A stretch of DNA of 64,000 bases from Candidatus Babeliales bacterium (GCA_963722075.1 CAVRJM010000001.1:1248001-1312000); one strand, 5' to 3'; positions 659 through 57,596 are shown, counted from the stretch's first letter. Translations and numbers: made by a program. Notes: a model not told the origin generated them from the letters alone.

Positions 659-1837
659 TTATTGTTGATTGGGCAAATGCAAGGTGGAGCAATACCCGCA
701 TTCTTTAAATACGGTTAGGAGTGGCTCAAAGGTCTTTCGTTTAGACGGAGTAAGCAAATATGGTTTATCATGGAACTCATTTATATCTTTTTGGAGATTT
801 TGAATTGCCGAATGCTCATTTTGTTCTTCATCTTCGGGATCAATATTCTTGTATAATTTATTAGGATTAGCCTCATTTGATAATAAGAATTTAATAAATC
901 CTAACCAGTTATTGCGCCTTGTTTTACAATTGTCAGTACAAAAATATTCAATAGCGGCCATTAGCAATGGTAATCTGCGGAATGTATATTTTTTTCTACA
1001 CTGATAATAGATTCCAGGTCCAATAAATAAATTATTTGGATTTACGCCATATTGTAATAATTTCTGGACAAATAAATTCAATTCTTGAAATGTTTTATTC
1101 AAAGCTATTGTTTTACAGCACTTACATTCATAAAAATTAAAAACATTCCTTTTCTTGCAGTTATCACAAAAAATGCCGACAGGATAGTTTGAATCCCAAA
1201 ACAACGTATAGATGGTTTTTGGATCAATAGTGGCTTTTCTGTTCATTAAATCAGTACTAAGTTCAAAATCACCAATCAAAAGCGAGAAAAATAATATCGA
1301 TTTTCCTTGAATTAAAAAATTACTTTGCATATTGTTCTTTAGAAGAATAGTAATTGCATCGAGCACCGGTAAAATATGCATCTGTGCACATTCTCGCTCA
1401 TCTCTATTTTTAAGATTAGGAAACTTCTTTAAAGTTTCTACTATATAATTTGCATTAATACAAAAACTATTTTTTGTAGTGTCACTTTTTTTATTAAGTT
1501 GTTCCATAATTTCAGTCAATACACAATCAGAAGCGATATTCCATGGGAAGTTTTTGTGGATGAGCGGGTCTTGTGCTATCGAGTGATTATGATGTGAGCA
1601 TAAACTGAAACTTAAAAGAGACTTATATGAATTAAGTGCACGTTCAAATTGCTTATAATTTTCAATGGTCGCGGGCATTCCGCAAACAAAGCCTGCTACA
1701 TGATAGCTTAATTCATTAGGCAAGAAAGTGAAAAAATCAATTGCAATAGAAGTTTGATTAGTATTACTTGCTTGCTCCATGAGTAAGCTTTTTGTGGGCA
1801 ACATTAATACTATTAATAATATTATGCATTTTTTCAC
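659..1837 (-). CDS. Secreted F-box-like and ankyrin-repeat protein (putative effector)
   Basis: Signal peptide then MEQ; FTFLPNELSYHVAGFV...LLSFSLCS...DPLI resembles an F-box; ankyrin-like KLLQYGVNPN, PLLMAAIE, FIKFLLSNEANPN. Confidence 0.6.
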   Translation of the reverse strand: MKKCIILLIVLMLPTKSLLMEQASNTNQTSIAIDFFTFLPNELSYHVAGFVCGMPATIENYKQFERALNSYKSLLSFSLCSHHNHSIAQDPLIHKNFPWNIASDCVLTEIMEQLNKKSDTTKNSFCINANYIVETLKKFPNLKNRDERECAQMHILPVLDAITILLKNNMQSNFLIQGKSILFFSLLIGDFELSTDLMNRKATIDPKTIYTLFWDSNYPVGIFCDNCKKRNVFNFYECKCCKTIALNKTFQELNLFVQKLLQYGVNPNNLFIGPGIYYQCRKKYTFRRLPLLMAAIEYFCTDNCKTRRNNWLGFIKFLLSNEANPNKLYKNIDPEDEEQNEHSAIQNLQKDINEFHDKPYLLTPSKRKTFEPLLTVFKECGYCSTLHLPNQQ

Positions 1838-2031
1838 GTAAAATCCTTTATTAATGCTTTTATTAAAAATATGATTGATAGTATTCTATCGAAAAGAAGT
1901 AATTATATCAAAATATTACAATATGGAAATTTCCATGAAGAAGGTATGAGTCCGAATCTAAAAGTTCCTTGTAAAATTAAAATCATAATTAAAATTTACA
2001 AGGAATTTTTGTTTTTTTAAGTCAATAGGGC

Positions 2032-2071
2032 ATTATGATTATGGTCATAGATAATTGACCATAATCATAAT
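2032..2071. promoter_or_regulatory. Perfect 16-bp inverted repeat upstream of the superoxide dismutase gene (operator candidate)
   Basis: ATTATGATTATGGTCA-N8-TGACCATAATCATAAT; the ATAATCATAAT arms resemble Fur-family boxes. Confidence 0.45.
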
Positions 2072-2118
2072 AAAATGGTATTTTTTTGTACGAAATTATA
2101 GTTATAAAGGAATAAACA

Positions 2119-2856
2119 ATGAAAAAAATTGCTATTATTATTGGCTGCATATTAGTAATTACCATACAGGCGAGCTTTCTTTCTGAATCTTTGATAGGTA
2201 AAAAAGAAAAAAATGAACTACAAAAGCTTCCTCTGCCCCATTATGAATCAAAAAAGTTTGATTTACAGGCAACATTGAAGGGTTTTAGCAAAAAACAAAT
2301 TGACGAGCATAAAGAGCTGTATCAGGGATATGTTAATAAAAGAAATGAAATAACAGAGCGCTTACAAGATGCTGATCGCTCACCTGCCAATAAAAGTTAT
2401 TCATCATTCAGAGCTCTTAAGACCGCTGAAACGTTTGCTATGAATGGTGACATTTTACATCGTTTATATTTTCAAAATATGGGATCAACGGGCAAGAAAA
2501 TAGGCCCAAAAACAGAAGAATATATTATAAAAAATTTTGGTTCTGTAGGTGCCTTCAAAGAGGATTTGTTTGCTACTGCTAAAGCAGCACGCGGCTGGGC
2601 GGTAACTGCCTTTACTCCCGATGATGGACGCATTAATAATTTTCTTTTTGATACGCATAATCAAAAAGTTCCTGCACTTGCTATACCTATTTTAGTTCTT
2701 GATGTGTATGAACATGCATATATGATCGATTTTGGCATTAAAGTAGTCTCTTATCTAGATGTTTTTTGGGATAATATTAATTGGGACGTTATAGAACAAC
2801 GCATGAATTTCATCGATAAGTACCATAATGTATGGAGCGAATATTTTATTGATTAG
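2119..2856 (+). CDS. Fe/Mn superoxide dismutase with N-terminal signal peptide
   Basis: LPLPHY, His ligands in DEHKELY and ILHRLYF, LDVYEHAY motif, INWD C-terminus. Confidence 0.9.
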   Translation: MKKIAIIIGCILVITIQASFLSESLIGKKEKNELQKLPLPHYESKKFDLQATLKGFSKKQIDEHKELYQGYVNKRNEITERLQDADRSPANKSYSSFRALKTAETFAMNGDILHRLYFQNMGSTGKKIGPKTEEYIIKNFGSVGAFKEDLFATAKAARGWAVTAFTPDDGRINNFLFDTHNQKVPALAIPILVLDVYEHAYMIDFGIKVVSYLDVFWDNINWDVIEQRMNFIDKYHNVWSEYFID

Positions 2857-3439
2857 TACCTGAATCGTCTTTACAGCAAATCTTTAATAGTTGATGAGCC
2901 CATAACATTCTTTGGTCTCTAAAACTTTCATGACAATTAGGGCAGTTGAATATACTTTCATGCTTATGGTTAAAAATATGTTCATCGAATAGGGTCTGTT
3001 TGTAAAATTGTTTGGCACAGTAATGACAGACCTGTAATTTTCTTGTGGGCATAGTTTTTGTAGGTTTTTTGTATTTTCTTTTTGGCTTTGTTTGTGAAGC
3101 TACTTTCTTATTGGACGTTTTATTAATAATTAGTTTATTAACTGTTAGAATATGAGTCTTTTTTAGAATTGTGTCATTGAAACAGTTTGTTGATTGAGGT
3201 GATGGAGTTATAGTTTGATTTGATTTATTTTGTAACGGTCCAGTTGCAATGGGACTCAACATAGAATCATTTTGAATTGAAACCGGAGTTTGTGAGGGTA
3301 CTGTAAAATCACTTAGAAATGGTAATAATGTAGCATCTTCTACCTTTTCTGCATCAGGAAATTCGTAAATCCAGGTTAAATTATCCATTGCTTCAAGATA
3401 ACCGATAAAAAAGATTAGTATAAAAAAATTTTTTTTCAT
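2846..3439 (-). CDS. Secreted C2H2 zinc-finger protein (eukaryote-like)
   Basis: Signal peptide LEA|MD; CHYCAKQF...EHIFNH and CPNCHESF...AHQLLKIC fingers; basic PKRKYKKP segment. Confidence 0.7.
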   Translation of the reverse strand: MKKNFFILIFFIGYLEAMDNLTWIYEFPDAEKVEDATLLPFLSDFTVPSQTPVSIQNDSMLSPIATGPLQNKSNQTITPSPQSTNCFNDTILKKTHILTVNKLIINKTSNKKVASQTKPKRKYKKPTKTMPTRKLQVCHYCAKQFYKQTLFDEHIFNHKHESIFNCPNCHESFRDQRMLWAHQLLKICCKDDSGTNQ

Positions 3440-5079: not shown

Positions 5080-5604
5080 TTAATAAGAAAAGTCTGGGTA
5101 AAACACTTTTATTTCTTTTTTAGCATTTTCAATCGAATCAGAACCATGTATCGCATTGTGGGTGATATCAGTGCCAAAAAGTTTTCTAATGGTCCCTTCT
5201 TCTGCCTTAGCCGGATCAGTAGCTCCCATGAGCGTACGCCAATCTTTAATGGCATTTTCTTTTTGCAATACCATAATAACGCTTGGTCCTGAGGTAATGT
5301 AATTAATTAACTCCTTAAAGAAAGGGCGTTCTTTATGGATTGCGTAAAATTCTTCTGCTTGTTTTTTTGAAATTACCACTTTTTCTATTTTTAATAGTAC
5401 AAAATCATGATGTTCAATACTATCAATAATTTTGCCGGTATTTTTTGCCGTTACGGCATCGGGTTTAATAATAGCAAATGTTTTTTCAAAGGGTTCACAA
5501 CTTGTTTTAACGTCTAATAATTTTTTAAAATTACTCACATTTAACAGAATAAACAGCGCTAATCCAGCAATAAAAACTGAAATTACCATCATTGTTTTAT
5601 TCAT
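5080..5604 (-). CDS. ndk: Nucleoside diphosphate kinase with N-terminal signal/anchor
   Basis: TFAIIKPDAV, F-Y-x-x-H-x-x-R-P-F-F, GTIR, NAIHGSDS; extra hydrophobic N-terminus. Confidence 0.92.
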   Translation of the reverse strand: MNKTMMVISVFIAGLALFILLNVSNFKKLLDVKTSCEPFEKTFAIIKPDAVTAKNTGKIIDSIEHHDFVLLKIEKVVISKKQAEEFYAIHKERPFFKELINYITSGPSVIMVLQKENAIKDWRTLMGATDPAKAEEGTIRKLFGTDITHNAIHGSDSIENAKKEIKVFYPDFSY

Positions 5605-5624
5605 AGTTATGCCCCGTTATAGAG

Positions 5625-5651
5625 AACGAGGCGGGATAAACCCGCCTCGTT
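5625..5651. terminator. GC-rich hairpin between the two ndk genes
   Basis: AACGAGGCGGG-ATAAA-CCCGCCTCGTT; weak U-tract on the coding strand. Confidence 0.55.
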
Positions 5652-5656
5652 TATTA

Positions 5657-6067
5657 TTACATTACTGTTGGAAAAAATTGCTTAATTTCTATAAGTGCAT
5701 TTTCTGAAGAATCAGATCCGTGCACCACATTAAAATCAATCGATTCACCAAAGAGCTTACGCAAAGTACCTGGTTCAGCTTTTAAGGGGTCAGTAGCTCC
5801 CATAAAATCACGCCATGCTTTAATAGCGTTATCCTTTTGCAATACCAAAATAATGGCAGGGCCCATGGTAACGTTAGAAACTAAGTTAGGAAAAAAAGGC
5901 TTTTCTTTATGAATTGCATAGAATTGCTCAGCTTGTTTTTTAGATAAATGGATCTTCTCCATTGCTAAAATTTCAAAGCCATTTTTTTCTATAAGATCAA
6001 TAATAGCGCCTGTTTTTTTACCGGTAACGGCATGTGGCTTAATAATTGCTAAGGTTTTCTCTATCAT
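5657..6067 (-). CDS. ndk: Nucleoside diphosphate kinase
   Basis: TLAIIKPHAV, GATDP, GTLR, NVVHGSDS. Confidence 0.95.
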   Translation of the reverse strand: MIEKTLAIIKPHAVTGKKTGAIIDLIEKNGFEILAMEKIHLSKKQAEQFYAIHKEKPFFPNLVSNVTMGPAIILVLQKDNAIKAWRDFMGATDPLKAEPGTLRKLFGESIDFNVVHGSDSSENALIEIKQFFPTVM

Positions 6068-11482: not shown

Positions 11483-12010
11483 ATGGTTAAGTTCAAGGTT
11501 CGTATTAGCTTATTTTTGCTATTATTCATCTCTCTTTTTTCTAATACTTTTGCCATGTCGCGCTTAGGCGTGCTGAATATTTTCCAGCAAGGAATTAAGA
11601 AAATTATACCTTATAAATACACAATTTGTGCTGGAATAGGGTTAACTGGGGCAGGAATTATAGGTTATTTATTATATAACAAGTTTTATCAGTCCATAAT
11701 GCTAAAACACATTACTTATACGTTAAATTTAAATATGCCTTATGAATATGGTAACGGTTATTTTTATACAAAAAGCACAGATCTCTTTAAAGGCAAACGT
11801 GAGGAAATTACCTTACAAAAATATATAAGTGAGTGTGACTATATTAACGTAGTTTTAAAAAAACAACATGAACTGGATGAAATTGACTGGACATTTAGAA
11901 ATCAATTTTATGGACGATATATAGACAATGATAAAGAGCCATCAGATGACTTTCATCTGCACTATTTAACAGGACTTACGCATTGGTCGAAAGTTCTGAT
12001 TGGGACTTGA
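11483..12010 (+). CDS. Secreted protein with a TM segment, truncated by the IS (last 13 aa encoded by the IS)
   Basis: Signal TFA|MSR, TM segment; ORF runs through the IS left TIR at 11969. Confidence 0.6.
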   Translation: MVKFKVRISLFLLLFISLFSNTFAMSRLGVLNIFQQGIKKIIPYKYTICAGIGLTGAGIIGYLLYNKFYQSIMLKHITYTLNLNMPYEYGNGYFYTKSTDLFKGKREEITLQKYISECDYINVVLKKQHELDEIDWTFRNQFYGRYIDNDKEPSDDFHLHYLTGLTHWSKVLIGT

Positions 12011-13117
12011 AATAAATAAAAAAGGGTGCTTCAATTTTGTGAATTAAACAACAAAAGCAAAAAAGAAGGACACCCGAAATGAGAATAACAAATACAAATG
12101 AAGAATCAAGCACACCAAAATATGTAATGGGTTTATTAAAAACAACGGCACGAAAAGTTTGCACAAATATTTCTGAAACACTGGGAATAATGCATGATGT
12201 GCTCAATAGGGAAGTTGAAAAAGCAGCCCAGAATGCAGCAGAAATAACAAGCTCATTACAAAATGTTGCTCTAGAAAGTCTTAGCAATTGCGAAAGATAT
12301 TTGATAATCGATGATACTCCCGTAAATAAGCAATATGCTAACGATATTGAAGGATTAGAAATTGTTTATGATAGTAGTGAGAAAAGATCAGCTTTGGGAT
12401 TACGGTCTGTAATTGGCATGATCACTGATACCAGAGTAAGAATACCGATTGATGCGGAGATTATGATAAGCAAAGTATTTGGAGAAACCAATTACAAGAC
12501 AAAAAGTGAAATTGCTTACATTATTATAGAGCGTGTTCTAGGATCAATTCGGTTTAATTGGTTAATTGCAGATGCCCATTATGCGACTGAATACCTTCTG
12601 CCAAAGCTTTTTAACAGGTCAATAAAATTTCTGATGAAAATTCCCAGAAATCGCGTTGTTACTATTAACAATAAAACAGGACAATTGCAAAAAATTTTAC
12701 GTTTGAAAAAAAATAACAGATTTGCTTGTGGATACGGCACTATTTTTGGTCTTTCCTGTTATTTCTATGTGTTAAAAATTGATAAGGAAAAAATTATGTA
12801 TCTTATCAGTAGCCATCAGCTCGGCAAAGAGAAGCTAATTTCTACATATAAGATTCGTTGGCAAATTGAATGCTTCAATAGAACTGCCAAACAACTTCTT
12901 GGATTCAGCGAATGCCAAATGCGTTCTTTTAACATGCAGCGTGCGCATTTACTTTTCGTGTTATGGGCTTATGCTTTAGCCGACATAAGGCGGGTAAAAG
13001 ATAATTTCGACAATACTGAACAAGCTGTCAGATCCTTTCGGGTCGCAAAACCCCCTACACCATCTAGTTTATTTTATGCTTTTAAAGAGAACTCTTATGC
13101 TCTTGCGTAAGTCCTGT
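11969..13117 (+). mobile_element. IS701-like insertion sequence
   Basis: 14-bp perfect TIRs ACAGGACTTACGCA (11969-11982) and TGCGTAAGTCCTGT (13104-13117) enclosing a DDE transposase; no clear target-site duplication. Confidence 0.9.
12079..13110 (+). CDS. DDE transposase (IS701-like)
   Basis: IIDDT, IADAHY, YKIRWQIECFNRTAKQLLG motifs; stop codon lies inside the right TIR. Confidence 0.9.
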   Translation: MRITNTNEESSTPKYVMGLLKTTARKVCTNISETLGIMHDVLNREVEKAAQNAAEITSSLQNVALESLSNCERYLIIDDTPVNKQYANDIEGLEIVYDSSEKRSALGLRSVIGMITDTRVRIPIDAEIMISKVFGETNYKTKSEIAYIIIERVLGSIRFNWLIADAHYATEYLLPKLFNRSIKFLMKIPRNRVVTINNKTGQLQKILRLKKNNRFACGYGTIFGLSCYFYVLKIDKEKIMYLISSHQLGKEKLISTYKIRWQIECFNRTAKQLLGFSECQMRSFNMQRAHLLFVLWAYALADIRRVKDNFDNTEQAVRSFRVAKPPTPSSLFYAFKENSYALA

Positions 13118-16177: not shown

Positions 16178-16882
16178 ATGCACAAACACAAACATACAAT
16201 TATATTTTTGTTTTCAATTTTTTGTATCTTTGAATCACTATATTCAATGAAATGTAATCGGAAAAAAGTTTTTGCGATGGTGTTTAATTCAGTGCAACAA
16301 AACCGGTCATCAGCCAATCTTTTTAGGCCATTATGTCATTATAATGCGATAGCAGAAAATGATTTAAGTATAAGTCAACCATATAGAACATATTCAACTA
16401 ATAATGAAGAAAATATACCTGAAGACCCTTATATTTCTTTTTGTACTGATCGAGAACTATTAAAAGAACTTATTGATGCTCGACTAAAAATGGTAAGAGA
16501 ATTTAATAATGAACGTATCCAGGCTCATTCGGATGGGCTATTTGATTTATTCCTAGGAGGAGTGTTAGTTATACCAGCTTTTGGATTAGGTGATCTTCTA
16601 ACAGAATTTTATAGCTGTTCTTTATCGTTAAGTTGCCCCCTAAAATCTATTTTGGCTCTTATAATAAGTTCTCCGTTTGCTGCATTTGACGGAGCGCTTT
16701 TAGGCGGATCGGCATTTTGCATTTTGGCTGGGATATATTGGACAACCAAACCGTTTATTTCAATTCCTGCGGAAATTAAAGCACGATCAATTGCGCGTCA
16801 AGCAGTTAAATCTCAAGAAAAAAAGCTAAAAGAAAAAGCAAAATTACTTGGTTTATCTGAAAACGCAATAAAAACGAAATGA
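16178..16882 (+). CDS. Secreted membrane protein with a presequence-like segment
   Basis: Signal LYS|MK, basic stretch ending RTYST, two hydrophobic segments. Confidence 0.6.
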   Translation: MHKHKHTIIFLFSIFCIFESLYSMKCNRKKVFAMVFNSVQQNRSSANLFRPLCHYNAIAENDLSISQPYRTYSTNNEENIPEDPYISFCTDRELLKELIDARLKMVREFNNERIQAHSDGLFDLFLGGVLVIPAFGLGDLLTEFYSCSLSLSCPLKSILALIISSPFAAFDGALLGGSAFCILAGIYWTTKPFISIPAEIKARSIARQAVKSQEKKLKEKAKLLGLSENAIKTK

Positions 16883-16914: not shown

Positions 16915-17394
16915 CTATACAGCTCTTGGCCAATTCCCGTGACCAAGAGTAAGACTTTTTCTTTCATGAGATTGTTCTTCATTATTATTCTCTTGTATAG
17001 ATTCGCTATCTGTTGATATATTTTTATAAATTATAAATTTTGCTGTTGCATAGGAAACACCGATTGTTGATAACCCCCATAAAAAACCAAGTAAGCCCCT
17101 ATAGGTCGTATAAAATGATTGGCTGTTTTGAGCTTCACGACATAAGCATAATTCTAGCTTTCTTATATCGTACGTATTATTAGAGTTATATGTTAATGTT
17201 TGTTCGATAGTTTCTTTGTATGGTGCAAGATTAAAATAAGAAGTTACAGAAGTTTCTTTTCCACCAATAAAAAATTTATTCGTAAAAAAATCACCGGCCT
17301 TATCAGCTTTTACTGCTCTTTTAAAAATTCGATGCATGCCAAAATTAGTGCTGAAAGATATTATAAGAAGCAATAGCAAAAATAGTTTATTCAT
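16915..17394 (-). CDS. Hypothetical secreted protein with a TM segment
   Basis: Signal NFG|MHRIFKR; one TM segment near the C-terminus. Confidence 0.55.
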   Translation of the reverse strand: MNKLFLLLLLIISFSTNFGMHRIFKRAVKADKAGDFFTNKFFIGGKETSVTSYFNLAPYKETIEQTLTYNSNNTYDIRKLELCLCREAQNSQSFYTTYRGLLGFLWGLSTIGVSYATAKFIIYKNISTDSESIQENNNEEQSHERKSLTLGHGNWPRAV

Positions 17395-18055: not shown

Positions 18056-19489
18056 ATGAATTTATTTATATTGGCATTTTATTTTGCGGTTTCTTTTGGC
18101 GGTGTTATTAATGCAATGGAAGACGCAAGCGATGTAAATAATGACCCACATTTTTTAGCACTGAAATCAATGCCACCTTTAGTTGATGGAATAATAAAGG
18201 CTAATGAATGTCCTTTTGTAACTGAGCGATCCATACAGCCTTTAACGAGATTATGTATTCCCGCGCTGAATGCGTATGTTCGAGCTCAAATTCAGCATAA
18301 CCCTCAATTTAATGTAACGCAATTTGAAAATTTGCTTTTATTAATTGGTGAGCATAGTTCTTATTTACAACAATCTCTTGCGCAAGAAATTGATACGGTG
18401 CCGCTTGAAATACAATATGAAGAAGACAAAAACGAAAAGGAAAACTATATATATGAAATAAAACTTGCGGGTTCAAATATGATTATCAGTCAAAAGGAGA
18501 AAGCTTTATTTACAAGAGAAAATAAATTAAAAAAAATTGCGAGCAAAAAACGGTCTCATATAACATCTATTAATGATAATACATTTGTTGATGGGAGAAA
18601 ATATTTTTCTATTTCAAATAATGGCAGGGTAGCATATCTCGATAAGACTTCTTTATATTTACAACTACCGTCGGATATAAATGATTGGTTACCAATAAGC
18701 TTTTTAAATGAATTATCACTATCTGAATCTTCTTCACCGGGATCTACTAAAGGACGTAATAGCTGTGCATGTGTTACATTTAGCCCCAATCAAGATTATT
18801 GCTTTGTAGGTACTACCGGTGGGGAAATTTTTAGGATTAATTTTCCTGCAGTGCTAGAATTAACCAAGAAAATATCTAAACATAGCATTAAGGCACTTTA
18901 TTGCGCAACTAATGGCTGTGTGTATGTTTCAGATGATAATGAGAAAAACTTCGTCTGGTATAATGAGGATATATTTGAATTACCATTTAAACAGCATACT
19001 AAAGAGATAATAAGTTCTGCAGATAATAATCTTGTTGCATTTCAACATCAAAACAATGAAGAAGTTTCAATAGTTGATTGGCATGCTCGTTCTATCGTTA
19101 CTCTCAAATTAGGTAAAATAGTAGCCATTACCCCCGATCATACAATTATAGCATCACGTGGTGAAGAGTTATTATTCTATAATATTCATGGCGAACTATT
19201 AAACAAAATCCAATTGTCTGCGGGGAGCACCGTATTTGGCAATACCGTTCCTTCATTTGATCCTCAAACCCCCTTATATGTGGTTGCAACAAAAGAAGAG
19301 CAAATTATCGTAGTTGATGATTATGAAACTTATGATGATACATGGATTCCAAGCATGAGTAGAGCTCCTAATTGCAAAAAAGTTGGTTCGCATACAGAAA
19401 AAAAATTAAAAAATTGCTTATGGTTTCCAAAGCAACTTTCAACTCAAGAATTATTTGATGAACTTAGTAAATTGCGTAAAAAAGAGTGA
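18056..19489 (+). CDS. Secreted WD40/beta-propeller-like protein
   Basis: Signal INA|MED; CVTFSPNQDYCFVGTTGGEI and other propeller-like strands. Confidence 0.6.
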   Translation: MNLFILAFYFAVSFGGVINAMEDASDVNNDPHFLALKSMPPLVDGIIKANECPFVTERSIQPLTRLCIPALNAYVRAQIQHNPQFNVTQFENLLLLIGEHSSYLQQSLAQEIDTVPLEIQYEEDKNEKENYIYEIKLAGSNMIISQKEKALFTRENKLKKIASKKRSHITSINDNTFVDGRKYFSISNNGRVAYLDKTSLYLQLPSDINDWLPISFLNELSLSESSSPGSTKGRNSCACVTFSPNQDYCFVGTTGGEIFRINFPAVLELTKKISKHSIKALYCATNGCVYVSDDNEKNFVWYNEDIFELPFKQHTKEIISSADNNLVAFQHQNNEEVSIVDWHARSIVTLKLGKIVAITPDHTIIASRGEELLFYNIHGELLNKIQLSAGSTVFGNTVPSFDPQTPLYVVATKEEQIIVVDDYETYDDTWIPSMSRAPNCKKVGSHTEKKLKNCLWFPKQLSTQELFDELSKLRKKE

Positions 19490-19535: not shown

Positions 19536-19940
19536 ATGAAATCATTTATAGCATTATTTTATTTTTCTGTATTATTTTTTTCTGGAGTGATAAATGCAAT
19601 GGAAGCTAGTGAAGCGAAAAAAGTTGCTGAAGCAGCAGAAATAAAGGTAACAAAGGAGGCGTCTCTTATTGCCATAGTTGCAGCACAAGAAAAACAAAAA
19701 CATGATGCTTGTTATGATAAATGCCCCGGTATGAAGAAAATAGATACCAGTAAAAAAAAGAATAACGATGATGATTTTGATTATACTAAGTGGTGTCCTG
19801 GTATGAGACCACCTACAAGAAATGCAACTGAATCAGCTAACAATAAATCAAACGATAATGATTTTGGTGAACGATGGTGGCCTTCATATGAATCTACTCA
19901 TACAAAAAATGATAGTAAGCATTATGATTGGGTTCCGTAA
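19536..19940 (+). CDS. Secreted protein with four aromatic/Pro repeats
   Basis: Signal INA|MEA; repeats YDKCPGM, TKWCPGM, ERWWPSY, YDWVP. Confidence 0.65.
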   Translation: MKSFIALFYFSVLFFSGVINAMEASEAKKVAEAAEIKVTKEASLIAIVAAQEKQKHDACYDKCPGMKKIDTSKKKNNDDDFDYTKWCPGMRPPTRNATESANNKSNDNDFGERWWPSYESTHTKNDSKHYDWVP

Positions 19941-21279: not shown

Positions 21280-21594
21280 TTATTCGTGCCAGCTACATAA
21301 TTCATATATAAGCTTCTCATGCTCCTCGCTCTTTTGTATCTGAAGGCTTAGTGCATTGAGTTTGTTATTATATTCATTCTGTGCCTGATGCATATCCATC
21401 CCATGTTTTATATTTTCTGCTATTAATGCTTGTTCATTATCCAAAAAATATTGATGGTATTTTTTTAAGTCTGCACTTGCTGTTTGATTAGTTGTTTGGT
21501 TATTATCTACCCAATTAAACAAGCTTTCTTCCATTGAAAAAATAAAGTTACTATACGTTAGTACGGATAAATAAAAAATTCTTACTGTTTTCAT
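21280..21594 (-). CDS. Small secreted helical protein
   Basis: Signal IFS|MEE. Confidence 0.6.
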   Translation of the reverse strand: MKTVRIFYLSVLTYSNFIFSMEESLFNWVDNNQTTNQTASADLKKYHQYFLDNEQALIAENIKHGMDMHQAQNEYNNKLNALSLQIQKSEEHEKLIYELCSWHE

Positions 21595-29009: not shown

Positions 29010-29489
29010 ATGAAAATCAAACAGATCCTTTATATTATTAGTATTATGGTTGGTATCTCATCAGCATGCCATGCTATGGAACAAGATCCCGCGGATAATC
29101 AAACCTTAAATGGTGTTACTAAAGTTGTTAAAGCTTATGTTAAATCAAAAATTAATAAACTGTTTCAGCGCCCCGAATTTAAGCTTGATAAGCCACTCGA
29201 AATTATAAAAACTCCTTTAAAAAGTGGCAGTGTTGAGATTGAAGCGGAAAGTGTTATTGAGCAACTTGATAAAGCGCTTAAGGCACGTGAATTAACATCC
29301 GATTCTATCATTAAATGTTCAGTTATTATCACTAATGAAACTGATGAGCATAAAATTTTAGGAATTTTTAAACGCAAGAAATTTAGTCCTAAAAATTTAA
29401 CATTCGTACGCATGGATTTTAAAGAGTTTAAAGTTGCGCTAGAAGTGCGCGTTTATAATGGTGGTAAGAAACAGAAAGCAAAGCTGTAA
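29010..29489 (+). CDS. Hypothetical secreted protein
   Basis: Signal CHA|MEQ; ends in KKQKAKL. Confidence 0.6.
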   Translation: MKIKQILYIISIMVGISSACHAMEQDPADNQTLNGVTKVVKAYVKSKINKLFQRPEFKLDKPLEIIKTPLKSGSVEIEAESVIEQLDKALKARELTSDSIIKCSVIITNETDEHKILGIFKRKKFSPKNLTFVRMDFKEFKVALEVRVYNGGKKQKAKL

Positions 29490-33085: not shown

Positions 33086-33664
33086 TTATTGTATTCTATT
33101 TACCACTTGACCAGTTTGATTATAAATGAGCTCTTCATTTGTTGAATCCCATACATAGTGACCGGGAAAACCGGTAAGATTATAGGTATATTCATTTCTT
33201 GAGATATCTGAGTTAATTACTACTAGGCAGCGCACGCTGTCGCAACATGAAGATATGCATGCATTTTTGGAATGGAAGGTAAATCCTTTGCCGTTTTGGC
33301 TCGTTTGTTGGAGGCCGTAGCCGGGAAACTTCATTTTTGGATATCCATTTCGGACTATATCCGAGAATATATTTGGTTTTTGCTTGGATTGTTTTGGATT
33401 TAACTTAGGTTTGGTAAAGAAATATAAATAACCAATTATGCCAAGTCCAGTGGTAAAACCAAACAAAGTGGTAAGATTACTTTTTGAGCTATAATCCTCA
33501 TAATATATTTGTCTTATAAGGTTACAGGTGCTTGCTATGGTTGTAAGAGCTCCTAGTGTATAAAATGCATCTTTTCCATCCTTGGTAAGATTCATTGCAG
33601 AAAGGTTGAGATTGGAAGAAATGGCTATGCAAAGTAAAAAAAATTTTATTATTTTCATAAACAT
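33086..33664 (-). CDS. Hypothetical secreted protein with two TM segments
   Basis: Signal LSA|MNL and two hydrophobic segments. Confidence 0.55.
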   Translation of the reverse strand: MFMKIIKFFLLCIAISSNLNLSAMNLTKDGKDAFYTLGALTTIASTCNLIRQIYYEDYSSKSNLTTLFGFTTGLGIIGYLYFFTKPKLNPKQSKQKPNIFSDIVRNGYPKMKFPGYGLQQTSQNGKGFTFHSKNACISSCCDSVRCLVVINSDISRNEYTYNLTGFPGHYVWDSTNEELIYNQTGQVVNRIQ

Positions 33665-42479: not shown

Positions 42480-43169
42480 GTGAAAAAGTTTTGTATCGCT
42501 ATAATTATTCTATTTGTAAATTTAATAAATGCTATGGAAACAGAGCCTTCCTTCTCCGTTGATTCTTATAAGGTGCATGATGAAAATAGTGGCTTACGGA
42601 TTGATAATTTAAAGTCTTCTGAGCATTCAAGCAATTCTGCGGTATATCAATTTTGTATTGCCATGTCTAAATATCCTCAAAAAATAAAAGTAATAAATAA
42701 TAATGCTGCAGCTAATTATATTGAAGCTGAACAACTGAAAAAAATAATAAAAGCTATTAACTATATTCAAAGCGAGGAAAAGCTGGATTTAACTGATTTA
42801 ATTGATATTATTCAAGAACCAGTAATAATGCAGCGAGAAGAACTCAGAGATGAATTAAAGCAGTTCTATCTAAGTAATTATAATTTGAGGCAGGAAAAGG
42901 GAGAGTTAGAAGATAAACTAGCTGAAAAAAATAAACATTTAGATGAACAATTACAAAAAAGAACGGGAGAGCTTCTTGAATCAGGAGCCGCACTATCACG
43001 TGTTTCGCTCGATATTGCAAATCTAACAAATCAATTAAAACAAAAAAGCAGATGGTTTTTTCAACGTCATCCATTATTAACAGCAGGTGGCGCCGTTCTT
43101 CTTTCAATGCCCATTTATTATGGTTTGTTCCGACTTTTGCAAGAATATAAGATTCCTTGTTTTGGTTAA
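42480..43169 (+). CDS. Secreted coiled-coil tail-anchored protein, paralog 1
   Basis: Signal INA|MET, heptad region, RWFFQRHPLLTAGGAVLLSMPIYYGLF. Confidence 0.75.
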   Translation: MKKFCIAIIILFVNLINAMETEPSFSVDSYKVHDENSGLRIDNLKSSEHSSNSAVYQFCIAMSKYPQKIKVINNNAAANYIEAEQLKKIIKAINYIQSEEKLDLTDLIDIIQEPVIMQREELRDELKQFYLSNYNLRQEKGELEDKLAEKNKHLDEQLQKRTGELLESGAALSRVSLDIANLTNQLKQKSRWFFQRHPLLTAGGAVLLSMPIYYGLFRLLQEYKIPCFG

Positions 43170-43239: not shown

Positions 43240-43875
43240 ATGAAAAAATGTTTTATCGTTCTATTGCTTTTTACTGCTATATCCAATGCAATGGAAAAAA
43301 AAGAAATGCCGCAACAAGAAGCTTCTTTTACGGTTAAATACACCAAGGTTCATGAGGAAAATATTGGAAAACGTATTGATAATTCAAAATCTGATGATCA
43401 TTTAATTAGCTCAATGGTATATCACTTCTGTACTTTGTCTAAATATCCTACCAATATAACGGTGGTAAATAATAAAGTTGTTGCTAATGGTATTGGTGTT
43501 GAGCAATTGAAAAAAATGGTATCAGCTATCAAATATGAGCAAGCAAGCGGAACGTTAGATTTTACCGGTTTAATTGATGTGATATGTAAGCCGTTAACAA
43601 AACAACGAGATGAATGTTTACTTAAAATGGTAGAAGTGCAAAAAGAAAATGACGATTTACGGAAAGAAAACGATGAAGTAAGAAGAGAGAAAAATGGAAT
43701 AGCGTCCGCATTAACCAGGCTGCGCGTCCACAATAATGATTTAGGAAAACAATTAAAGCAACAAACCCGTTGGCTTTATCAACGCCATCCATTATTAACA
43801 GCAGCTGGCGCCGTTCTTCTTTCTCTGCCTTTATATTATGGGTTATTCTCATTATTAAAAACGTATCATTCTTGA
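43240..43875 (+). CDS. Secreted coiled-coil tail-anchored protein, paralog 2
   Basis: Signal SNA|MEK, RWLYQRHPLLTAAGAVLLSLPLYYGLF. Confidence 0.75.
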   Translation: MKKCFIVLLLFTAISNAMEKKEMPQQEASFTVKYTKVHEENIGKRIDNSKSDDHLISSMVYHFCTLSKYPTNITVVNNKVVANGIGVEQLKKMVSAIKYEQASGTLDFTGLIDVICKPLTKQRDECLLKMVEVQKENDDLRKENDEVRREKNGIASALTRLRVHNNDLGKQLKQQTRWLYQRHPLLTAAGAVLLSLPLYYGLFSLLKTYHS

Positions 43876-44491: not shown

Positions 44492-45181
44492 ATGAGGTTT
44501 AAGTTGAACTATTTTTTAATTATATTTTTCCTATTAACTACTATTGCTCAAGGCATGGATACGCAAAATCAAAAAGAGAAAACTCCTGTTCCTACCGAAG
44601 TGTCTTTTATTGTTGATTATCAAGAACATCTCAGAACTTGTTCGGTACGAGATAGAGAACCATTAGGGGTTGAACATATCATTAGCAGGATTGTAAAGCA
44701 TTTTGCTTTTAGTTTACGCAATCCTGAAAAAATTATAGTTCTTAATCGTGGCTACAATTGGAATTATGTTACTGAAGGTGACATTGAAAATATCTTTGGA
44801 GGATTTAGGTTTCAAGATGAACTCGATGGTCACGCAATAGCAAAACTAGATGTAACACGTTTATTGCATTATGCTCAACGAGGATTGAAGGAAAAACATT
44901 CACAGCGACAAAAAGAGATACAAGAAGAACATGATATAGAAAAAGGTAAATTAATGGAGATTATAAAAGAAAAAAAAGCAAAGTATTGTGATCTCAATAG
45001 GAAATGGCGTGCGCTTGATGCTGAAAAAAAAGATTTAGAAGATCGATTGAACCAAAAAAATAAATGGTTTTATCAACGCTATCCCTTGTTAACTGCAGGA
45101 TGTGCCGTTCTGTTTTCGATGCCTGTTTATTATAAACTATTTTTGATCTGGCAAAATTATCAAGCCGGTATTTCTTCGTAA
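44492..45181 (+). CDS. Secreted coiled-coil tail-anchored protein, paralog 3
   Basis: Signal AQG|MDT, KWFYQRYPLLTAGCAVLFSMPVYYKLF. Confidence 0.75.
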   Translation: MRFKLNYFLIIFFLLTTIAQGMDTQNQKEKTPVPTEVSFIVDYQEHLRTCSVRDREPLGVEHIISRIVKHFAFSLRNPEKIIVLNRGYNWNYVTEGDIENIFGGFRFQDELDGHAIAKLDVTRLLHYAQRGLKEKHSQRQKEIQEEHDIEKGKLMEIIKEKKAKYCDLNRKWRALDAEKKDLEDRLNQKNKWFYQRYPLLTAGCAVLFSMPVYYKLFLIWQNYQAGISS

Positions 45182-47033: not shown

Positions 47034-47672
47034 GTGACACACCACAATAATAATAGAACAAAATTTATTATAATCGTAATCACAACCTTACTCTTTAATT
47101 GTTCGCTACTTAACAGTATGAATACCCAGACAGAAACGATTATTAGAGGAGTTGCTTACCCTGTCACATCAGTGTTACAATTTGATCGTAGAAAACTTGC
47201 TCAGTTAATTTCTAATCCAGCTAAGCAGCATTTAATATATGCGGGCTATAATCAACAAGAATTAGCATTAAATAGGTTAGCGTATATAAAATTATTGACA
47301 TACGACAATGAAAGAACGCGGAAAAGCCCTCAGGAAGCGCGTAATAGAAAATTGGCTACCACTTTTAAATGGGATTTTGATATAAGTGTATCTTTATTAG
47401 GCGGGGCATACAAACTTTATAAAAATGAGGATGAAAACAAAAAAATGTTTTTTTATCCACTAATTTTAGGTATGTGCATTGGAGGCACGTATTGCTTTCT
47501 TAAAGGTCTTATCCGATTAAGCAACAATTATTCTGCTCATGCTATTGAACAAAAAAGAGAACGGCGGAAAAAAGTTAATAATGATCTAATAACTTTTATT
47601 AGAGATAAAGCTAAACTTCCCGTGACAAAGGTAATAACTACCGATAATCGGGTAATGATGAGATTAAATTAG
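47034..47672 (+). CDS. Hypothetical secreted protein with TM segments
   Basis: Signal LNS|MNT; hydrophobic segments. Confidence 0.5.
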   Translation: MTHHNNNRTKFIIIVITTLLFNCSLLNSMNTQTETIIRGVAYPVTSVLQFDRRKLAQLISNPAKQHLIYAGYNQQELALNRLAYIKLLTYDNERTRKSPQEARNRKLATTFKWDFDISVSLLGGAYKLYKNEDENKKMFFYPLILGMCIGGTYCFLKGLIRLSNNYSAHAIEQKRERRKKVNNDLITFIRDKAKLPVTKVITTDNRVMMRLN

Positions 47673-49743: not shown

Positions 49744-50607
49744 CTATACAAATTGTAAACATCTACTCCAACGAATTCGCTTCCAAAAATCGATTGGATG
49801 TAATAGTAAATCGAATATAAACCATGAATCATAACTATCAATTGAATAAATACGAAAAACTATTTTGCCATGAACTAAATGCTTATCAAAGGGACCAAAA
49901 TAACGAGAATCAGCACTGCCTTTACGATTATCTCCCATTGCCCATATTTGATTAGGGCCTAAATGAACATCAAATTCGTCAACATTACGGCCATTAACGA
50001 TTGTTGGTGTATAGGGTATTAAGAGTTGCTCTTCATGTAGTTTTGCCAAATATTTTTGTGCCAATTGTACATCAGCAGCATCCATTATATAAAAAGGTTG
50101 ATCTTCATAAGAATATGATGAATCATAGGTACGTGTATAAAATTTATCATCATGATAAATAGTAAGGAGTGGGTATTTATTCAAATGGGGCTCATCTAAT
50201 TTTTGTCCATTTCTATATACCACTGGTTTACCATCTTCAATAACGCCTTTGATATGATCGCCTGGTAATCCAATCACGCGCTTAGTCCAATTTTCTGGCC
50301 CATATACATAGCGTTGAAATAAATTAACAAAATAATTGTCTGAATAGGGAAAAACAGGGCTGTTTAGCGCAATAATATCCCCGTGTTGCAACTCTCTAAA
50401 AAGCACCGTGAATTTATCGGCAAAAAAACGTTCGCCAACCAACATGGTAGTTTCCATAGAGCCTGTGGGAACTTGATAGAGCCCATAAAAGAAGGTTCGA
50501 ATAATAAAGGCGAGCGGAACGATAACAATAATTGTTTCGATATATTGAGCAAGCGTTGATTTATTGGGACGCCGTATCCATGCCCAGAACCTATGCAAGA
50601 AATTCAT
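49744..50607 (-). CDS. lepB: Signal peptidase I
   Basis: VPTGSMETT, TKRVIGLPGD, MGDNRKGSADSR. Confidence 0.95.
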   Translation of the reverse strand: MNFLHRFWAWIRRPNKSTLAQYIETIIVIVPLAFIIRTFFYGLYQVPTGSMETTMLVGERFFADKFTVLFRELQHGDIIALNSPVFPYSDNYFVNLFQRYVYGPENWTKRVIGLPGDHIKGVIEDGKPVVYRNGQKLDEPHLNKYPLLTIYHDDKFYTRTYDSSYSYEDQPFYIMDAADVQLAQKYLAKLHEEQLLIPYTPTIVNGRNVDEFDVHLGPNQIWAMGDNRKGSADSRYFGPFDKHLVHGKIVFRIYSIDSYDSWFIFDLLLHPIDFWKRIRWSRCLQFV

Positions 50608-51643: not shown

Positions 51644-52261
51644 ATGTTGTCTTCTTTAATGATTACTGCTGCATATATCGGATTACAAATTTTAAGCATC
51701 CCACAAACGGTATTACTACCAGGATGGTTGAATATTTATAAAGAATATCCCATTTTAAATCAGGGAACTATCGAAGGAGTTAATGCAAGCTTTGCGAAGG
51801 TTTCAAAAGAACCTCATTGTGTATTTTTAATTGCAAAAACTGATGAATATCCGGTTGCGGGCATTGCCACCGGTATTCCATTAGCAGCATACGATGATAA
51901 CGCAGAATATTTTAAAGAAAAAGGCTTAGATCCTTCCGATTATTTTCATATCAATGATGCAATTATTTTGCCACCGTATCAAAATAAAGGAATTGGTTCT
52001 AAATTGTATAAAAAATTAGAGAAGAAAGCACGTTTATGGGGGTATAAAGGAATTTCTGTTTGCACGGTTAAGCGTGAAAAAGATCATCCTTTAAGACCGT
52101 TGCAATACAAGAGTTCTAAGAAATTTTGGAAGCGCTTGGGTTTTACAAAAGTATCTTTAATAACTAAAGAAGCATGGCCTACTATAATTGATGATCGAGG
52201 CGCCGTAGAAGAACAGTATGAAAATACGTTGGTATGGTGGACTAAGGAATTAAAGGCATGA
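51644..52261 (+). CDS. GNAT acetyltransferase
   Basis: ILPPYQNKGIG, HPLRP, FWKRLGF. Confidence 0.85.
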   Translation: MLSSLMITAAYIGLQILSIPQTVLLPGWLNIYKEYPILNQGTIEGVNASFAKVSKEPHCVFLIAKTDEYPVAGIATGIPLAAYDDNAEYFKEKGLDPSDYFHINDAIILPPYQNKGIGSKLYKKLEKKARLWGYKGISVCTVKREKDHPLRPLQYKSSKKFWKRLGFTKVSLITKEAWPTIIDDRGAVEEQYENTLVWWTKELKA

Positions 52262-54335: not shown

Positions 54336-54354
54336 TTTATTTATTGATACCTCC

Positions 54355-54858: not shown

Positions 54859-54940
54859 GATAATTCCAAATTTATAGCTTTATATAATAATTATTTTATT
54901 ATTATACCACAGTGATCGTTAAAACTAAAAAGGTGACATT

Positions 54941-55561
54941 ATGCTATTCAGATCAAAAATTGCTTGTGCAGCTCTATTACTAAATTTATTTTTGTGCCCG
55001 TTAGCACAATCGAATGAAAGTCCTTTTAACCAAATAATAGAATTATTAGAATCCGGTGGTAACCATGATTATATTGGCGAACCGGTTTGCCAATTAGAAC
55101 ATGCCTTACAATGTGCTCAATTGGCAGTTGATGCTGGTGCTGATGATCAAACGGTACTAGCGGCATTACTTCATGATATTGGCCATTTATGCGCATCTGG
55201 TGATAACGCAACGATGGGTGAATATGGCATCGATCAACATGAAAAAGTGGGCGCTCAATTTGTTCGTGATCATGGTTTGCCCGAAAAAGTTGCGCAACTT
55301 ATTGAAGGTCATGTACAAGCAAAGCGGTATTTAACCGCTAAATATCCGGAATATTATCAAAAGCTTTCTGATGCTAGTAAACAAACGCTTGAATATCAAG
55401 GCGGCCCGATGTCGCCAGAAGAGGCTTTAGAATTTGAAAAAGACCCGTTATTTGAACAAAAGCTGCAAATGCGTTATTGGGATGAGCAAGCAAAGAAAGT
55501 GGGTTGGCAGGTAAAGCCGTTAGAAGATTATAAAACTTTGCTTGTTAATTATTTGCGTTAA
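54941..55561 (+). CDS. HD-domain protein, PhnZ-like, with signal peptide
   Basis: YIGEPVCQLEHALQCA, LLHDIGH, HVQAKRYL, LSDAS..TL..QGGPM, R.WDE.AK. Confidence 0.85.
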   Translation: MLFRSKIACAALLLNLFLCPLAQSNESPFNQIIELLESGGNHDYIGEPVCQLEHALQCAQLAVDAGADDQTVLAALLHDIGHLCASGDNATMGEYGIDQHEKVGAQFVRDHGLPEKVAQLIEGHVQAKRYLTAKYPEYYQKLSDASKQTLEYQGGPMSPEEALEFEKDPLFEQKLQMRYWDEQAKKVGWQVKPLEDYKTLLVNYLR

Positions 55562-57596
55562 AAAGATGTTTATGAGGGTAATTTTCTTTAATTTTATCCT
55601 GTAAAAACTTTTTAACTGCATCTGGTAATTTCTGAAGTGACGGTATAAATAGTTTAAATTCATCTGAGAATAAATAATCACTATTATCTTCTTCTATATG
55701 CTGTAAAGCATAATCAAATAGTAACATGGTTAAGAGGGATTGATCTTCTAGTTGCTTTTTATCATAAAAGCTATATTCAATTATTTGATTTTCAAAAGAA
55801 ACAAATAGTCGTCGATTATCATACGAAAATGCACAAGCGTTAGGTAGATCATAGGTATTATAAGGGATGGTTGTTATACATTCGCCGGTTTGGATTTCTA
55901 TTATTTGAATTTCTTCTCGTGCTGTTGGTGCATGCTTGTTTTTCAAAGTTGCCATAAGGGCACCATTAGGTGAAAAAACTAATTTATCTAAAGGTGATTT
56001 TTGTGGCAATTCTTTAAGAGATTTTTCAGCTTGTATATCCAATAAGCAAATGGCGTCTTCATCATTATATGCTAATACATTTGATGTTGGTGAAAAAGCA
56101 AAATCATATATTTTTTTATGAGTAGTATATGTTGTCACTATTGAATGTTTGGAATAATCATAAATATGAATTTTGCTATTCTCTTTTGAATCTTCATTAA
56201 TAGCAATAAGAGGGCCGTTGCGTGAAAATGCATGTTTAGTTGATAGTTGGTTATTAACGGTGATGGTTTGGTTAGTATTAAAATCATGCAAATAAGTAGC
56301 ATGCGGGTTTTGAGTAGAATATACTAGCTTATTATTTGGAATGAAGGTTATTGCTGCACAACAGCTATCTGAGTTAATAGTTTTAATACATTTACCAGTG
56401 TTTACATCCCATATTTTAATTAGATTATTATCGGTCCCTTTTTTTTGTTGGCTTGCTAAAAAAGCACCATCTGGTGAAAAGCTAAAGCATACATCTACAA
56501 GATTAATAGGTAGCTTACGTATTGGTTTCTTGGTTATGCAATCAATGAATGCAGTATCTTTAATTGTTTTTCTTATAAAAGCTGTTTGAGTGGGTGATAT
56601 AATAAATGCACCGTAATGACTGCTGGGTAGTTGTCTTAAAATGAACGATGAGGTTACTTTTTGTGCTATCTGCTTTGAAATGGTATTAATTCTTGTTGAA
56701 TGATTAATGATCTGCTGTACTAATAGCTGTTCTTGCTGCGGGGTAAGTTTAAACGCATTAAACCAAGAAATAAAGCCGGTAATAGTTTTGCTATATTTTT
56801 TTTGGGCTAATTCATACAGTTTTTCTAAGCAACTACTAGTTATTAATGAGAAATTAGTTTGCTGAACATAATCCAATAAGTGTGCAAGAGATGTTTGCGT
56901 ATAAGTAGTCCTAATACGGTTAATAATATGTGGTATACATAAATTTACTAAAGAAGGTATTTCAGCAGCTGGTAAAAAATAAGAAGTTTGCGGTGCTCGT
57001 ATTTTTTGCTCGGTTGAAGCATATTCAAAAAATAAACTGTCTGATTTTTTTAGCAAGGGATATCCTATTTGAGCAGATTGCCCAATAAGGTTGTTAATGG
57101 CATTGCGCAGTGCGTTGACAGTTTTTGTCCACTTATCGCACCCATTATTATACAAAGTAATAATTTGTGATAACCCATGCAGTTGCTTATGATGAATAAG
57201 AAAATCAATCAAAGGTAAAAGTTGTTCCAGAGCATTGTTAAAAAGCAGTTGATCTTCTTCTTGTTGAAGATGAATAATAGGCTCTATTAGTGTGCTGCAT
57301 AAATAATCAATCAGCTCATGATGAGTAGTATGCTGAATTAATTGAATCATAGCATTAAGTTGTTGATTAAGTGGTAGATTAGGGGTAAAGATCGAATTCA
57401 AAATATCTTGAAAGCAGTTATTATCCTGGTGATTAAAGGCATGTTCAAGTTGCTGTGCAATGTGGGTAATTGAAGAACTTTCTTGAATTGATATGTTGGT
57501 ATTGCTTGTATACGCTGTCTCCATAGAATATGTAAAGAAACCAGCAGTACTTAATGCAAATAGAAAATAAAGTAATTGCTTACCAATGAAATCCAC
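55545..57596 (-). CDS. Secreted WD40-repeat protein
   Basis: Signal TYS|MET; FSPDGAFLAS...IKIWD, FSPNGALMA, FSYDNRRL. Confidence 0.85.
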   Translation of the reverse strand: MDFIGKQLLYFLFALSTAGFFTYSMETAYTSNTNISIQESSSITHIAQQLEHAFNHQDNNCFQDILNSIFTPNLPLNQQLNAMIQLIQHTTHHELIDYLCSTLIEPIIHLQQEEDQLLFNNALEQLLPLIDFLIHHKQLHGLSQIITLYNNGCDKWTKTVNALRNAINNLIGQSAQIGYPLLKKSDSLFFEYASTEQKIRAPQTSYFLPAAEIPSLVNLCIPHIINRIRTTYTQTSLAHLLDYVQQTNFSLITSSCLEKLYELAQKKYSKTITGFISWFNAFKLTPQQEQLLVQQIINHSTRINTISKQIAQKVTSSFILRQLPSSHYGAFIISPTQTAFIRKTIKDTAFIDCITKKPIRKLPINLVDVCFSFSPDGAFLASQQKKGTDNNLIKIWDVNTGKCIKTINSDSCCAAITFIPNNKLVYSTQNPHATYLHDFNTNQTITVNNQLSTKHAFSRNGPLIAINEDSKENSKIHIYDYSKHSIVTTYTTHKKIYDFAFSPTSNVLAYNDEDAICLLDIQAEKSLKELPQKSPLDKLVFSPNGALMATLKNKHAPTAREEIQIIEIQTGECITTIPYNTYDLPNACAFSYDNRRLFVSFENQIIEYSFYDKKQLEDQSLLTMLLFDYALQHIEEDNSDYLFSDEFKLFIPSLQKLPDAVKKFLQDKIKENYPHKHLFNANN

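Follow-up and report, generated by a model that had tools for sequence, protein, structure and literature searches.

The Q-rule of the Bacteroidetes is a phylum-specific choice of first mature residue (+1) on signal peptidase I substrates, where Gln, which glutaminyl cyclase converts to a ring on the majority of exported proteins, is proposed to be stabilising and the modifying enzyme sits in the inner membrane (PMC5837995, PMC10653852). The eukaryotic acetyltransferase NatB acts co-translationally on an initiator Met that precedes Asp, Glu, Asn or Gln (PMC11735805), and in the PEXEL pathway of Plasmodium host-bound parasite proteins gain a protease-made end with E, Q or D as second residue (PMC10653839). 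The present work concerns a 64,000-nucleotide stretch of a Candidatus Babeliales genome (GCA_963722075.1 CAVRJM010000001.1:1248001-1312000; G000:C1:1248001-1312000 in our numbering), hereafter the window, in which an earlier note had seen at least 15 unrelated effector-like proteins whose predicted signal peptide is followed directly by Met. Met followed by E, Q, N or D after the predicted cut is confirmed as a genome-wide rule, carried by about a third of the proteins with a Sec signal.

Dependentiae, a phylum of protist parasites, is known almost only from genomes. The genome that contains the window (1.47 Mb, 35% GC, 99% complete) encodes an ATP/ADP translocase whose named homologues carry the labels Babeliales or Dependentiae. 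Signals are reported on 44% of the proteins of Chromulinavorax (PMC6561590); in Babela 79 of 126 ankyrin proteins bear them, and no secretion system other than type II is reported there (PMC4378268).

Methionine at the signal peptide junction

Our own caller gave 1401 genes, 669 of them with a signal-like N-terminus after removal of two prepilin-like and 52 multi-membrane proteins, a set in which a few cytoplasmic false positives are left. All cleavage sites are predictions from our own heuristics, and three sets of Met-class proteins are used below: 122 from a model blind to +1, 211 from an earlier class unfiltered at -1, and 255 from a rule-based assignment.

The enrichment of +1 Met over background that the earlier note asked for is strong, and three tests of it were concordant. 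The blind model, which sees positions -13 to -1 only, places Met at +1 in 122 of the 669 proteins against a background of 1.8% (p=2e-80). Under a fixed, training-free -3/-1 rule, 197 of 1026 fitting sites have Met at +1, a 10.5-fold excess; every other residue stands at 0.4- to 1.4-fold there, and Met falls to 2.0-4.5% at adjacent offsets. The rule-based class comprises 255/669 signal-bearing proteins, about 30 of which would arise by chance, and its Met rate is four to sixteen times that of any other residue. Forty random regions of the genome gave Met at +1 in 137 of 356 cases, against 13.7 expected.

These N-termini fit the pattern predicted for Sec and signal peptidase I substrates, with a basic n-region, a hydrophobic core and small residues at -3 and -1. 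In the 211 class, position -1 is occupied by A (88), S (47), G (41), T (11), P (7), C (7) or others (10), and position -3 mostly by L, I, S, A, V, C or T. We infer that signal peptidase I (LepB) cuts straight before the Met. A dedicated second signal peptidase was considered and rejected: lepB is single in many Met-rich genomes, and the raw count of lepB matches does not follow the strength of the rule (rho 0.05).

The start codon and the origin of the methionine

The earlier note would have been undone if the internal ATG were the true start, and ribosome-site statistics answer that it is not. A ribosome-site motif precedes the signal start in 116 of the 211 genes and the internal ATG in one of 211; deep internal ATGs, as a control, have it in 286 of 6086 cases, and a G-rich peak appears only at the signal start. 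Within the window, a Shine-Dalgarno-like motif lies ahead of the signal start in 11 of the 15 genes and ahead of the internal ATG in one (19536). These counts show, at the level of predicted signals, that translation begins at the upstream start. That the internal ATG is instead a real or second start, with the upstream signal untranslated, draws on the choices of the coding-score caller used for this genome, which placed the start of several window genes at the internal ATG; set against the 1/211 and 116/211 above, it has next to no probability. The window genes so called are 659, 21280, 33086, 42480, 44492 and 47034, each of which thereby lost its signal. Gene callers can thus start Met-class genes at the wrong ATG and conceal their signals.

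The Met might also be a relic start codon, left where signals were prefixed to older genes or where one signal-Met cassette was copied widely. A LigD-phosphoesterase cargo that begins M-P and several enzymes with a Met 10-20 residues past the signal would suit such an origin. True cytoplasmic starts, however, have E, D, N or Q second in only 63 of 266 cases, with K and A leading; no ribosome-site remnant is seen at the internal ATG (1/211), and the Met keeps to +1 without scatter, so that we regard a relic as very unlikely. Recent copying of a cassette was rejected, as signal DNA identity is 0.38 among unrelated Met-class cargo and 0.37 among other cargo, with mixed -1 codons. The 211 Met-class proteins fall into 149 unrelated cargo clusters. 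An orthologue test based on a J-domain effector was uninformative, its matches being mainly housekeeping DnaJ.

The residue after methionine

The second residue (+2) matches the NatB-class spectrum that the earlier note had recognised: in the blind set of 122, E is found 58 times, Q 18, N 13, D 12 and K 7, and A, T and P do not occur. Measured against a local background drawn from positions +3 to +6 in these proteins, E, Q, N or D occupies +2 in 101/122 (0.32 expected, p=4e-31), and the same residues account for 190 of the rule-based 255. Since the neutral residues Q and N are overrepresented by themselves (31/122, p=2e-4), acidity alone is insufficient to explain the pattern. Small residues, which permit Met removal by methionine aminopeptidase (MetAP), are depleted, at 3/122 against 0.36 (p=7e-20), and hydrophobic and basic residues mostly so (K and L 0.5-fold each). 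In the Met class no conservation was found past +2. Met-rich relatives have E, D, N or Q second in 69 of 80 cases.

Cargo of the Met class

The earlier note had assigned the Met to eukaryote-like or orphan cargo and denied it to envelope proteins, a division that holds genome-wide: Met is present in 52 of 71 ankyrin, WD40, C2H2 and DnaJ proteins and in none of 20 envelope or enzyme controls (BamA, Skp, penicillin-binding proteins, DegP, S41, secretins and others). By genome-wide local hidden Markov models, the signal-bearing members with Met number 17/20 for WD40, 3/3 for C2H2, 4/5 for the J-domain, 2/3 for AAA, 28/43 for ankyrin (with one false call and two misses) and 0/2 for deubiquitinases. 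A Pfam scan of the first 400 residues of 344 of the 669 signal proteins, from 40 random regions, left 116 of 139 Met-class proteins without a family, the remainder being mainly ankyrin, WD40, J-domain and AAA proteins. The rule is thus shown, for predicted junctions, to be confined to non-envelope cargo, and this cargo would fit a destination in the host cytosol. CaaX-like C-termini (Cys at -4) occur in 12/255 Met-class proteins, 4/414 other signal proteins and 13/678 non-signal proteins.

Several further features of the exported set were noted. Small Met-class orphans with CaaX-like C-termini cluster at G000:C1:812523-826230 and elsewhere, suggesting host prenylation. Several Met-class proteins begin with basic runs resembling nuclear localisation signals; ankyrin and WD40 cargo at G000:C1:394994, 397169, 975617 and 977783 start Met-Lys-Arg and contain more basic runs of this kind. 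Two exported ubiquitin C-terminal hydrolases (G000:C1:1134491-1135516 and 1149061-1150455) have predicted Gln-Pro-Pro starts and lie near type II secretion genes, and a signal-bearing MutS domain III protein at G000:C1:746637 is without the Met. A second N-terminal class after the signal consists of an amphipathic helix, L-x-x-E-L-x-x-L-K-x-x-L-x-x-L, whose cargoes (RING, EEP nuclease, orphans) are unrelated; it was found in 12 of 669 proteins against 0.13 expected, and in none of the sampled relatives.

Spread beyond this genome

Across 81 Babeliota genomes there were 2068 matches to the start-signal-Met pattern and 812 to a Leu-codon control; the pattern exceeds the control in 76 of the 81, with family medians of 2 to 53 per Mb, which shows that the predicted rule is spread across Babeliota. 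In a pattern scan of GTDB (31/64 parts, 128 loci), multi-gene Met loci were found only in DNA named Babeliota or closely matching proteins of the present genome, and the remaining loci were mostly single matches, as in one SAR11 family. That conserved family, of about 125 residues, has a signal followed by Met-Glu-Lys, and its neighbours are without a general Met rule.

A draw of 301 alphaproteobacteria led to one genome, G156, with five of six matches in frame by eye and a translocase of its own; as it was chosen through a pattern match, the regions sampled from it avoid those matches. The draw also contained an unpublished genome, G172, on which none of the conclusions depends. A second genome of the same order, G435, has proteins labelled Paracaedibacteraceae. 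In 640 kb sampled from this order, Met stands at +1 in 19/185 signal proteins, where 10.2 would be expected (p=0.009); M-E/D accounts for 11 of the 19. Among 150 listed matches in Paracaedibacterales (321 in total), 36 are by eye in-frame genes with a signal followed by M-E/D, in 19 of 25 genomes. Twelve Paracaedibacterales proteins compared with those of the present genome had no homology to them except for one weak AAA match. Flanks from free-living controls gave 12/128 against 7.0 expected (p=0.05), one of the 12 being the search-matched gene itself. No clear excess was found in sampled DNA of Holosporales sensu stricto, the order of G086 (3/41 against 2.5 expected), where in-frame cases exist, and none in the other small-genome alphaproteobacteria picked from the 301 (4/70 against 4.3). 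Plasmid searches for outgroups were unproductive. Judged from these predicted junctions, the recurrence in Paracaedibacterales is real and several-fold weaker than in Babeliota.

Proposed escape from host N-degrons and possible routes of export

The reading that we consider best, and to which we give about an even chance, is that the terminus exposed by LepB escapes host N-degrons without host acetylation. The cargo would be exported by Sec and cut by LepB ahead of the Met, would cross the outer membrane, most likely via type II secretion, no other system having been found, or else in vesicles, would arrive in the host cytosol or nucleus, and would survive there with its Met-E/D/N/Q end spared by N-degron pathways. 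A protein delivered post-translationally would miss the ribosome-bound acetylases. Described degrons of unacetylated ends comprise G/A/S/T/C (GASTC), R/K/H/F/W/Y/L/I together with D/E/N/Q/C (Arg), and Met-hydrophobic or Met-basic (UBR4) (PMC11735805). Met ahead of a small residue is trimmed to a degron end, which leaves Met-E/D/N/Q. The safest end would be a Met whose neighbour is too bulky for MetAP to act and is not hydrophobic or basic, and the residues observed at +2 are of this kind. The +2 pattern is therefore explicable without acetylation, which, by the host or by an anchored enzyme of the bacterium described below, would be optional.

The earlier note had set avoidance of N-degrons beside the statement that such ends are NatB substrates; the first leads here too, and acetylation by host NatB is the weaker part. 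NatA to NatC are co-translational, and loss of NatB has no global effect on stability in yeast (PMC11735805); because NatB is described as acting at the ribosome, the host enzyme may never meet an imported protein.

Degron avoidance accounts for the +1 and +2 residues, for the bias in cargo and for the reappearance of the pattern in another protist endosymbiont. Several observations weigh against it. Clearly host-facing exported proteins without the Met include both deubiquitinases, the RING protein, SET and about 14 ankyrin proteins, and of the 20 envelope controls half are lipoproteins or anchors that stay uncleaved. Random relatives are looser at +2, with E/D/N/Q in 23/52 and small residues, not depleted, in 16/52, counts that include about 14 chance calls among the 52, although a universal host filter predicts an identical spectrum. 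The CaaX excess includes one false Met call among its 12 cases and was not seen in relatives (3/128 against 4/344) or alphaproteobacteria (0/15). The alphaproteobacterial signal is weak, and of five genomes from which 80 kb were sampled three were without excess. Yeast, animals and plants, not protists, are the source of the degron list (PMC11735805), and Babela grows in a vacuole (PMC4378268), which type II cargo would also have to cross. Degron avoidance leaves the host-facing cargo without Met, and the looser +2 of some families, unaccounted for.

The route of export bears on a different explanation. The genome encodes type II secretion system (T2SS) protein C (T2SSC) and two secretins (Secretin_N proteins), and FHIPEP (of type III secretion or flagella), TrbI and TatC were looked for in this 99% complete genome and not found; secretins are also present in 52 of 55 Paracaedibacterales genomes. 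Sec-exported cargo beside a T2SS is consistent with type II substrates, and export by this system is the most likely route on gene content. Met-[EQND] could then be a sorting tag, as the earlier note also proposed, with the type II system, a chaperone or a vesicle-loading factor as its periplasmic reader, selecting what enters a second step of export, an idea which the gene complements of both groups would accommodate, as would the helix class on 12 other cargoes and the difference in +2 strictness between lineages. Plasmodium offers a precedent in which mature N-termini (xE/Q/D, acetylated) decide export, although there E/Q/D is dispensable for export (PMC10653839). With many host-facing exported proteins lacking the Met, nothing conserved past +2 and the shunning of MetAP-permissive residues unexplained, we think a sorting tag improbable. 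To our knowledge, type II systems do not read linear N-terminal motifs.

An anchored NAT-like acetyltransferase

All five PF00583 GNAT proteins of the genome carry a signal peptide or anchor, and no leaderless RimI-like copy was found in it. One of the five is a conserved enzyme resembling N-terminal acetyltransferases (NATs), with matches in 71 of the 81 Babeliota genomes, two of them only short and generic, and orthologues, mostly single copy, in 69; it was not found at full length in families f7, f10, f11, f12 and f13. The N-terminal anchor is kept in 117 of 120 homologues, K/R before the anchor equal or exceed those after it in 115, and 28 of 30 parsed loci have a signal anchor with N-in charge bias, so that the enzyme is predicted to be anchored in the inner membrane and to face the periplasm. 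In 22 of 30 loci it lies near one and the same gene, presumably TruA. Its family profile matches NAA30 best in the PDB (6e-14), followed by archaeal NATs, RimI and NAA50, and a single-sequence search gave NAA20 (1e-6). The predicted structure has a GNAT fold (pLDDT 93) and an acetyl-CoA-binding loop with a conserved R-x-x-G-x-G/A, which we take to be the acetyl-CoA-binding motif. In fold comparison NATs tie with small-molecule acetyltransferases (Z 17-19), and against the RimI model TIGR01575 the enzyme scores 56 bits, below the cut-off of 86.

Such an enzyme might acetylate the Met exposed by LepB, the cargo leaving the cell with a NatB-like cap. Its conservation, its anchor and the rank of NATs in its profile would suit this, as would the leaders on all five GNATs. 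The rule is stronger where the enzyme is present (median 12.0 against 5.2 per Mb, with p-values overstated because the genomes are kin), and sampled loci have M-E/D/N/Q in 25/239 cases with the enzyme and 0/62 without, a comparison that for enzyme-less genomes rests on 62 signal proteins and pattern counts. Yet genomes without an orthologue still show the rule (206 matches against 121 for the control, with in-frame cases in G045), some that bear it show little (family f5, median 3 per Mb; G069, 0/25), and 55 Paracaedibacterales genomes yielded no full-length orthologue. The tied fold and the score under the RimI cut-off also count against capping, and we know of no periplasmic source of acetyl-CoA. 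Capping by the bacterium is thus a doubtful proposition, and the enzyme, which tracks the predicted rule loosely, is a lead rather than an explanation. Still bolder, and in our estimate unlikely, is full imitation, in which LepB cuts hundreds of effectors to Met-Glu/Gln/Asn/Asp, a periplasm-facing NAT acetylates them, and Paracaedibacterales are convergent; effectors would then enter the host as ready-made NatB-type proteins.

The junctions in the window

All fifteen junctions listed in the earlier note were found at their genes, with the Met as residue 18-29, and its count of twelve M-E/D/N was reproduced (Table 1). The fifteen are not all unrelated: 42480, 43240 and 44492 are paralogues in one cluster, which leaves about 13 independent cases. 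Among the cargo labels, C2H2 (2846) and WD40 (55545) are borne out by Pfam, and F-box/ankyrin for 659 is not, there being no Pfam match; tail anchors in the window cargo are of only moderate hydrophobicity (1.5-1.7). The proteins said to be without the Met, namely SOD, fasciclin, clostripain, SET, the ankyrin protein at 34443 and the Cys peptides, do lack it.

Table 1. Met-class junctions, predicted peptidase, acetyltransferases and amphipathic-helix genes (window positions unless prefixed G000:C1)
Feature	Coordinates	Strand	Remarks
Signal + Met-Glu (SLL|MEQ)	659..1837	-	ATG 1778-1780; orphan; -1 Leu non-canonical, poor peptidase I site; weakest case
Signal + Met-Asp	2846..3439	-	ATG 3386-3388; C2H2 zinc finger protein
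Signal + Met-Ser	11483..12010	+	ATG 11555-11557; orphan
Signal + Met-Lys	16178..16882	+	ATG 16247-16249; orphan
Signal + Met-His	16915..17394	-	ATG 17335-17337; orphan
Signal + Met-Glu	18056..19489	+	ATG 18116-18118; in the genome's WD40-effector set by local hidden Markov model
Signal + Met-Glu	19536..19940	+	ATG 19599-19601; orphan
Signal + Met-Glu	21280..21594	-	ATG 21532-21534; orphan
Signal + Met-Glu	29010..29489	+	ATG 29076-29078; orphan
Signal + Met-Asn	33086..33664	-	ATG 33593-33595; orphan
Signal + Met-Glu	42480..43169	+	ATG 42534-42536; paralogue of 43240 and 44492
Signal + Met-Glu	43240..43875	+	ATG 43291-43293; paralogue of 42480 and 44492
Signal + Met-Asp	44492..45181	+	ATG 44555-44557; paralogue of 42480 and 43240
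Signal + Met-Asn	47034..47672	+	ATG 47118-47120; orphan
Signal + Met-Glu	55545..57596	-	ATG 57522-57524; WD40 protein
Signal peptidase I (LepB), predicted cutter	49744..50607	-	second copy at G000:C1:326703-327548
GNAT acetyltransferase with hydrophobic leader	51644..52261	+	two genes from lepB; one of five GNATs
Conserved anchored NAT-like GNAT	G000:C1:929670-930239	-	outside the window
Other PF00583 GNATs, besides 51644-52261	G000:C1:577510-578142, 581247-581918, 582037-582915		
Amphipathic-helix genes, four of 12	G000:C1:377929-379002, 1043109-1046539, 1075684-1082832, 1132271-1133233		

Other features of the window include a class I tRNA synthetase gene (21870-24316, minus strand), presumably for valine (ValRS), split into two open reading frames in differing frames, possibly by an assembly error, and a gene broken into two overlapping frames (41662-42394, plus strand) that we take from its motif to be Fic-like. 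A DDE transposase lies at 12079-13110, and a probable insertion-sequence fragment between Met-class paralogues (43950-44438) has ends that run into other DNA in public contigs. Two tandem nucleoside diphosphate kinase-like genes, one with an N-terminal hydrophobic anchor, occupy 5080-6067 on the minus strand.

Comparison with known systems

No description of the Met rule was found in a search of open-licence papers. The words methionine, TM6 and Dependentiae are all absent from the Q-rule paper (PMC5837995), the available text of a 2026 review of bacterial N-termini does not mention the rule (PMC13515050), and the word methionine is absent from the main texts of both Dependentiae secretome papers, in which no mature-end rule was seen (PMC6561590, PMC4378268). 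Those secretomes resemble the present one in their many signal-bearing ankyrin, AAA and orphan proteins (PMC6561590, PMC4378268). What is added to the earlier note is the genome-wide scale, the weak recurrence in an unrelated alphaproteobacterial order and the conserved anchored NAT-like enzyme.

The two-residue marker flags a set of likely effectors, which in this genome numbers about 225 proteins, the majority without a Pfam family, and makes the survival in the host of Sec-exported proteins of protist parasites testable. Signal peptide junctions of bacteria, it suggests, can be shaped by a degradation system of the host, apparently in two lineages independently, and the anchored GNAT is named as a candidate extracytoplasmic N-terminal acetyltransferase. 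That enzyme shares the GNAT fold with the branch of RimI, NAA20, NAA30, NAA50 and archaeal NATs, its best profile matches, and differs from them in its conserved signal anchor, its predicted periplasmic orientation and its score under the RimI cut-off, acetylation being putative.

NatB substrates resemble the Met class in their Met-Asp/Glu/Asn/Gln spectrum, with degron-type second residues avoided here; unlike the co-translational target of NatB, the Met of the present proteins is internal to a bacterial precursor and predicted to be exposed by a peptidase (PMC11735805). The protease-made end of PEXEL proteins is likewise host-bound, whereas here there is no RxL motif, plasmepsin V or PTEX and the first residue is a fixed Met (PMC10653839); no Arg was found at -3 among the 211 Met-class proteins.

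The Q-rule shares with the Met rule a phylum-specific +1 residue on signal peptidase I substrates that is proposed to stabilise them; it has an inner-membrane modifying enzyme (PMC5837995, PMC10653852), for which the anchored GNAT, with its loose co-occurrence, would be a candidate counterpart here. Gln itself stands at 0.9-fold at +1 in this genome against 10.5-fold for Met, and the breadth of the Q-rule is not reproduced, with 255/669 substrates and none of the 20 envelope proteins. In Babeliota, unlike the Bacteroidetes, Met combines with a +2 rule and marks about one exported protein in three, envelope proteins are excluded, and the reader is likely the host. Although it is without the defining features of the Q-rule, we prefer to think of the Met rule as a lineage-specific +1 rule akin to it.

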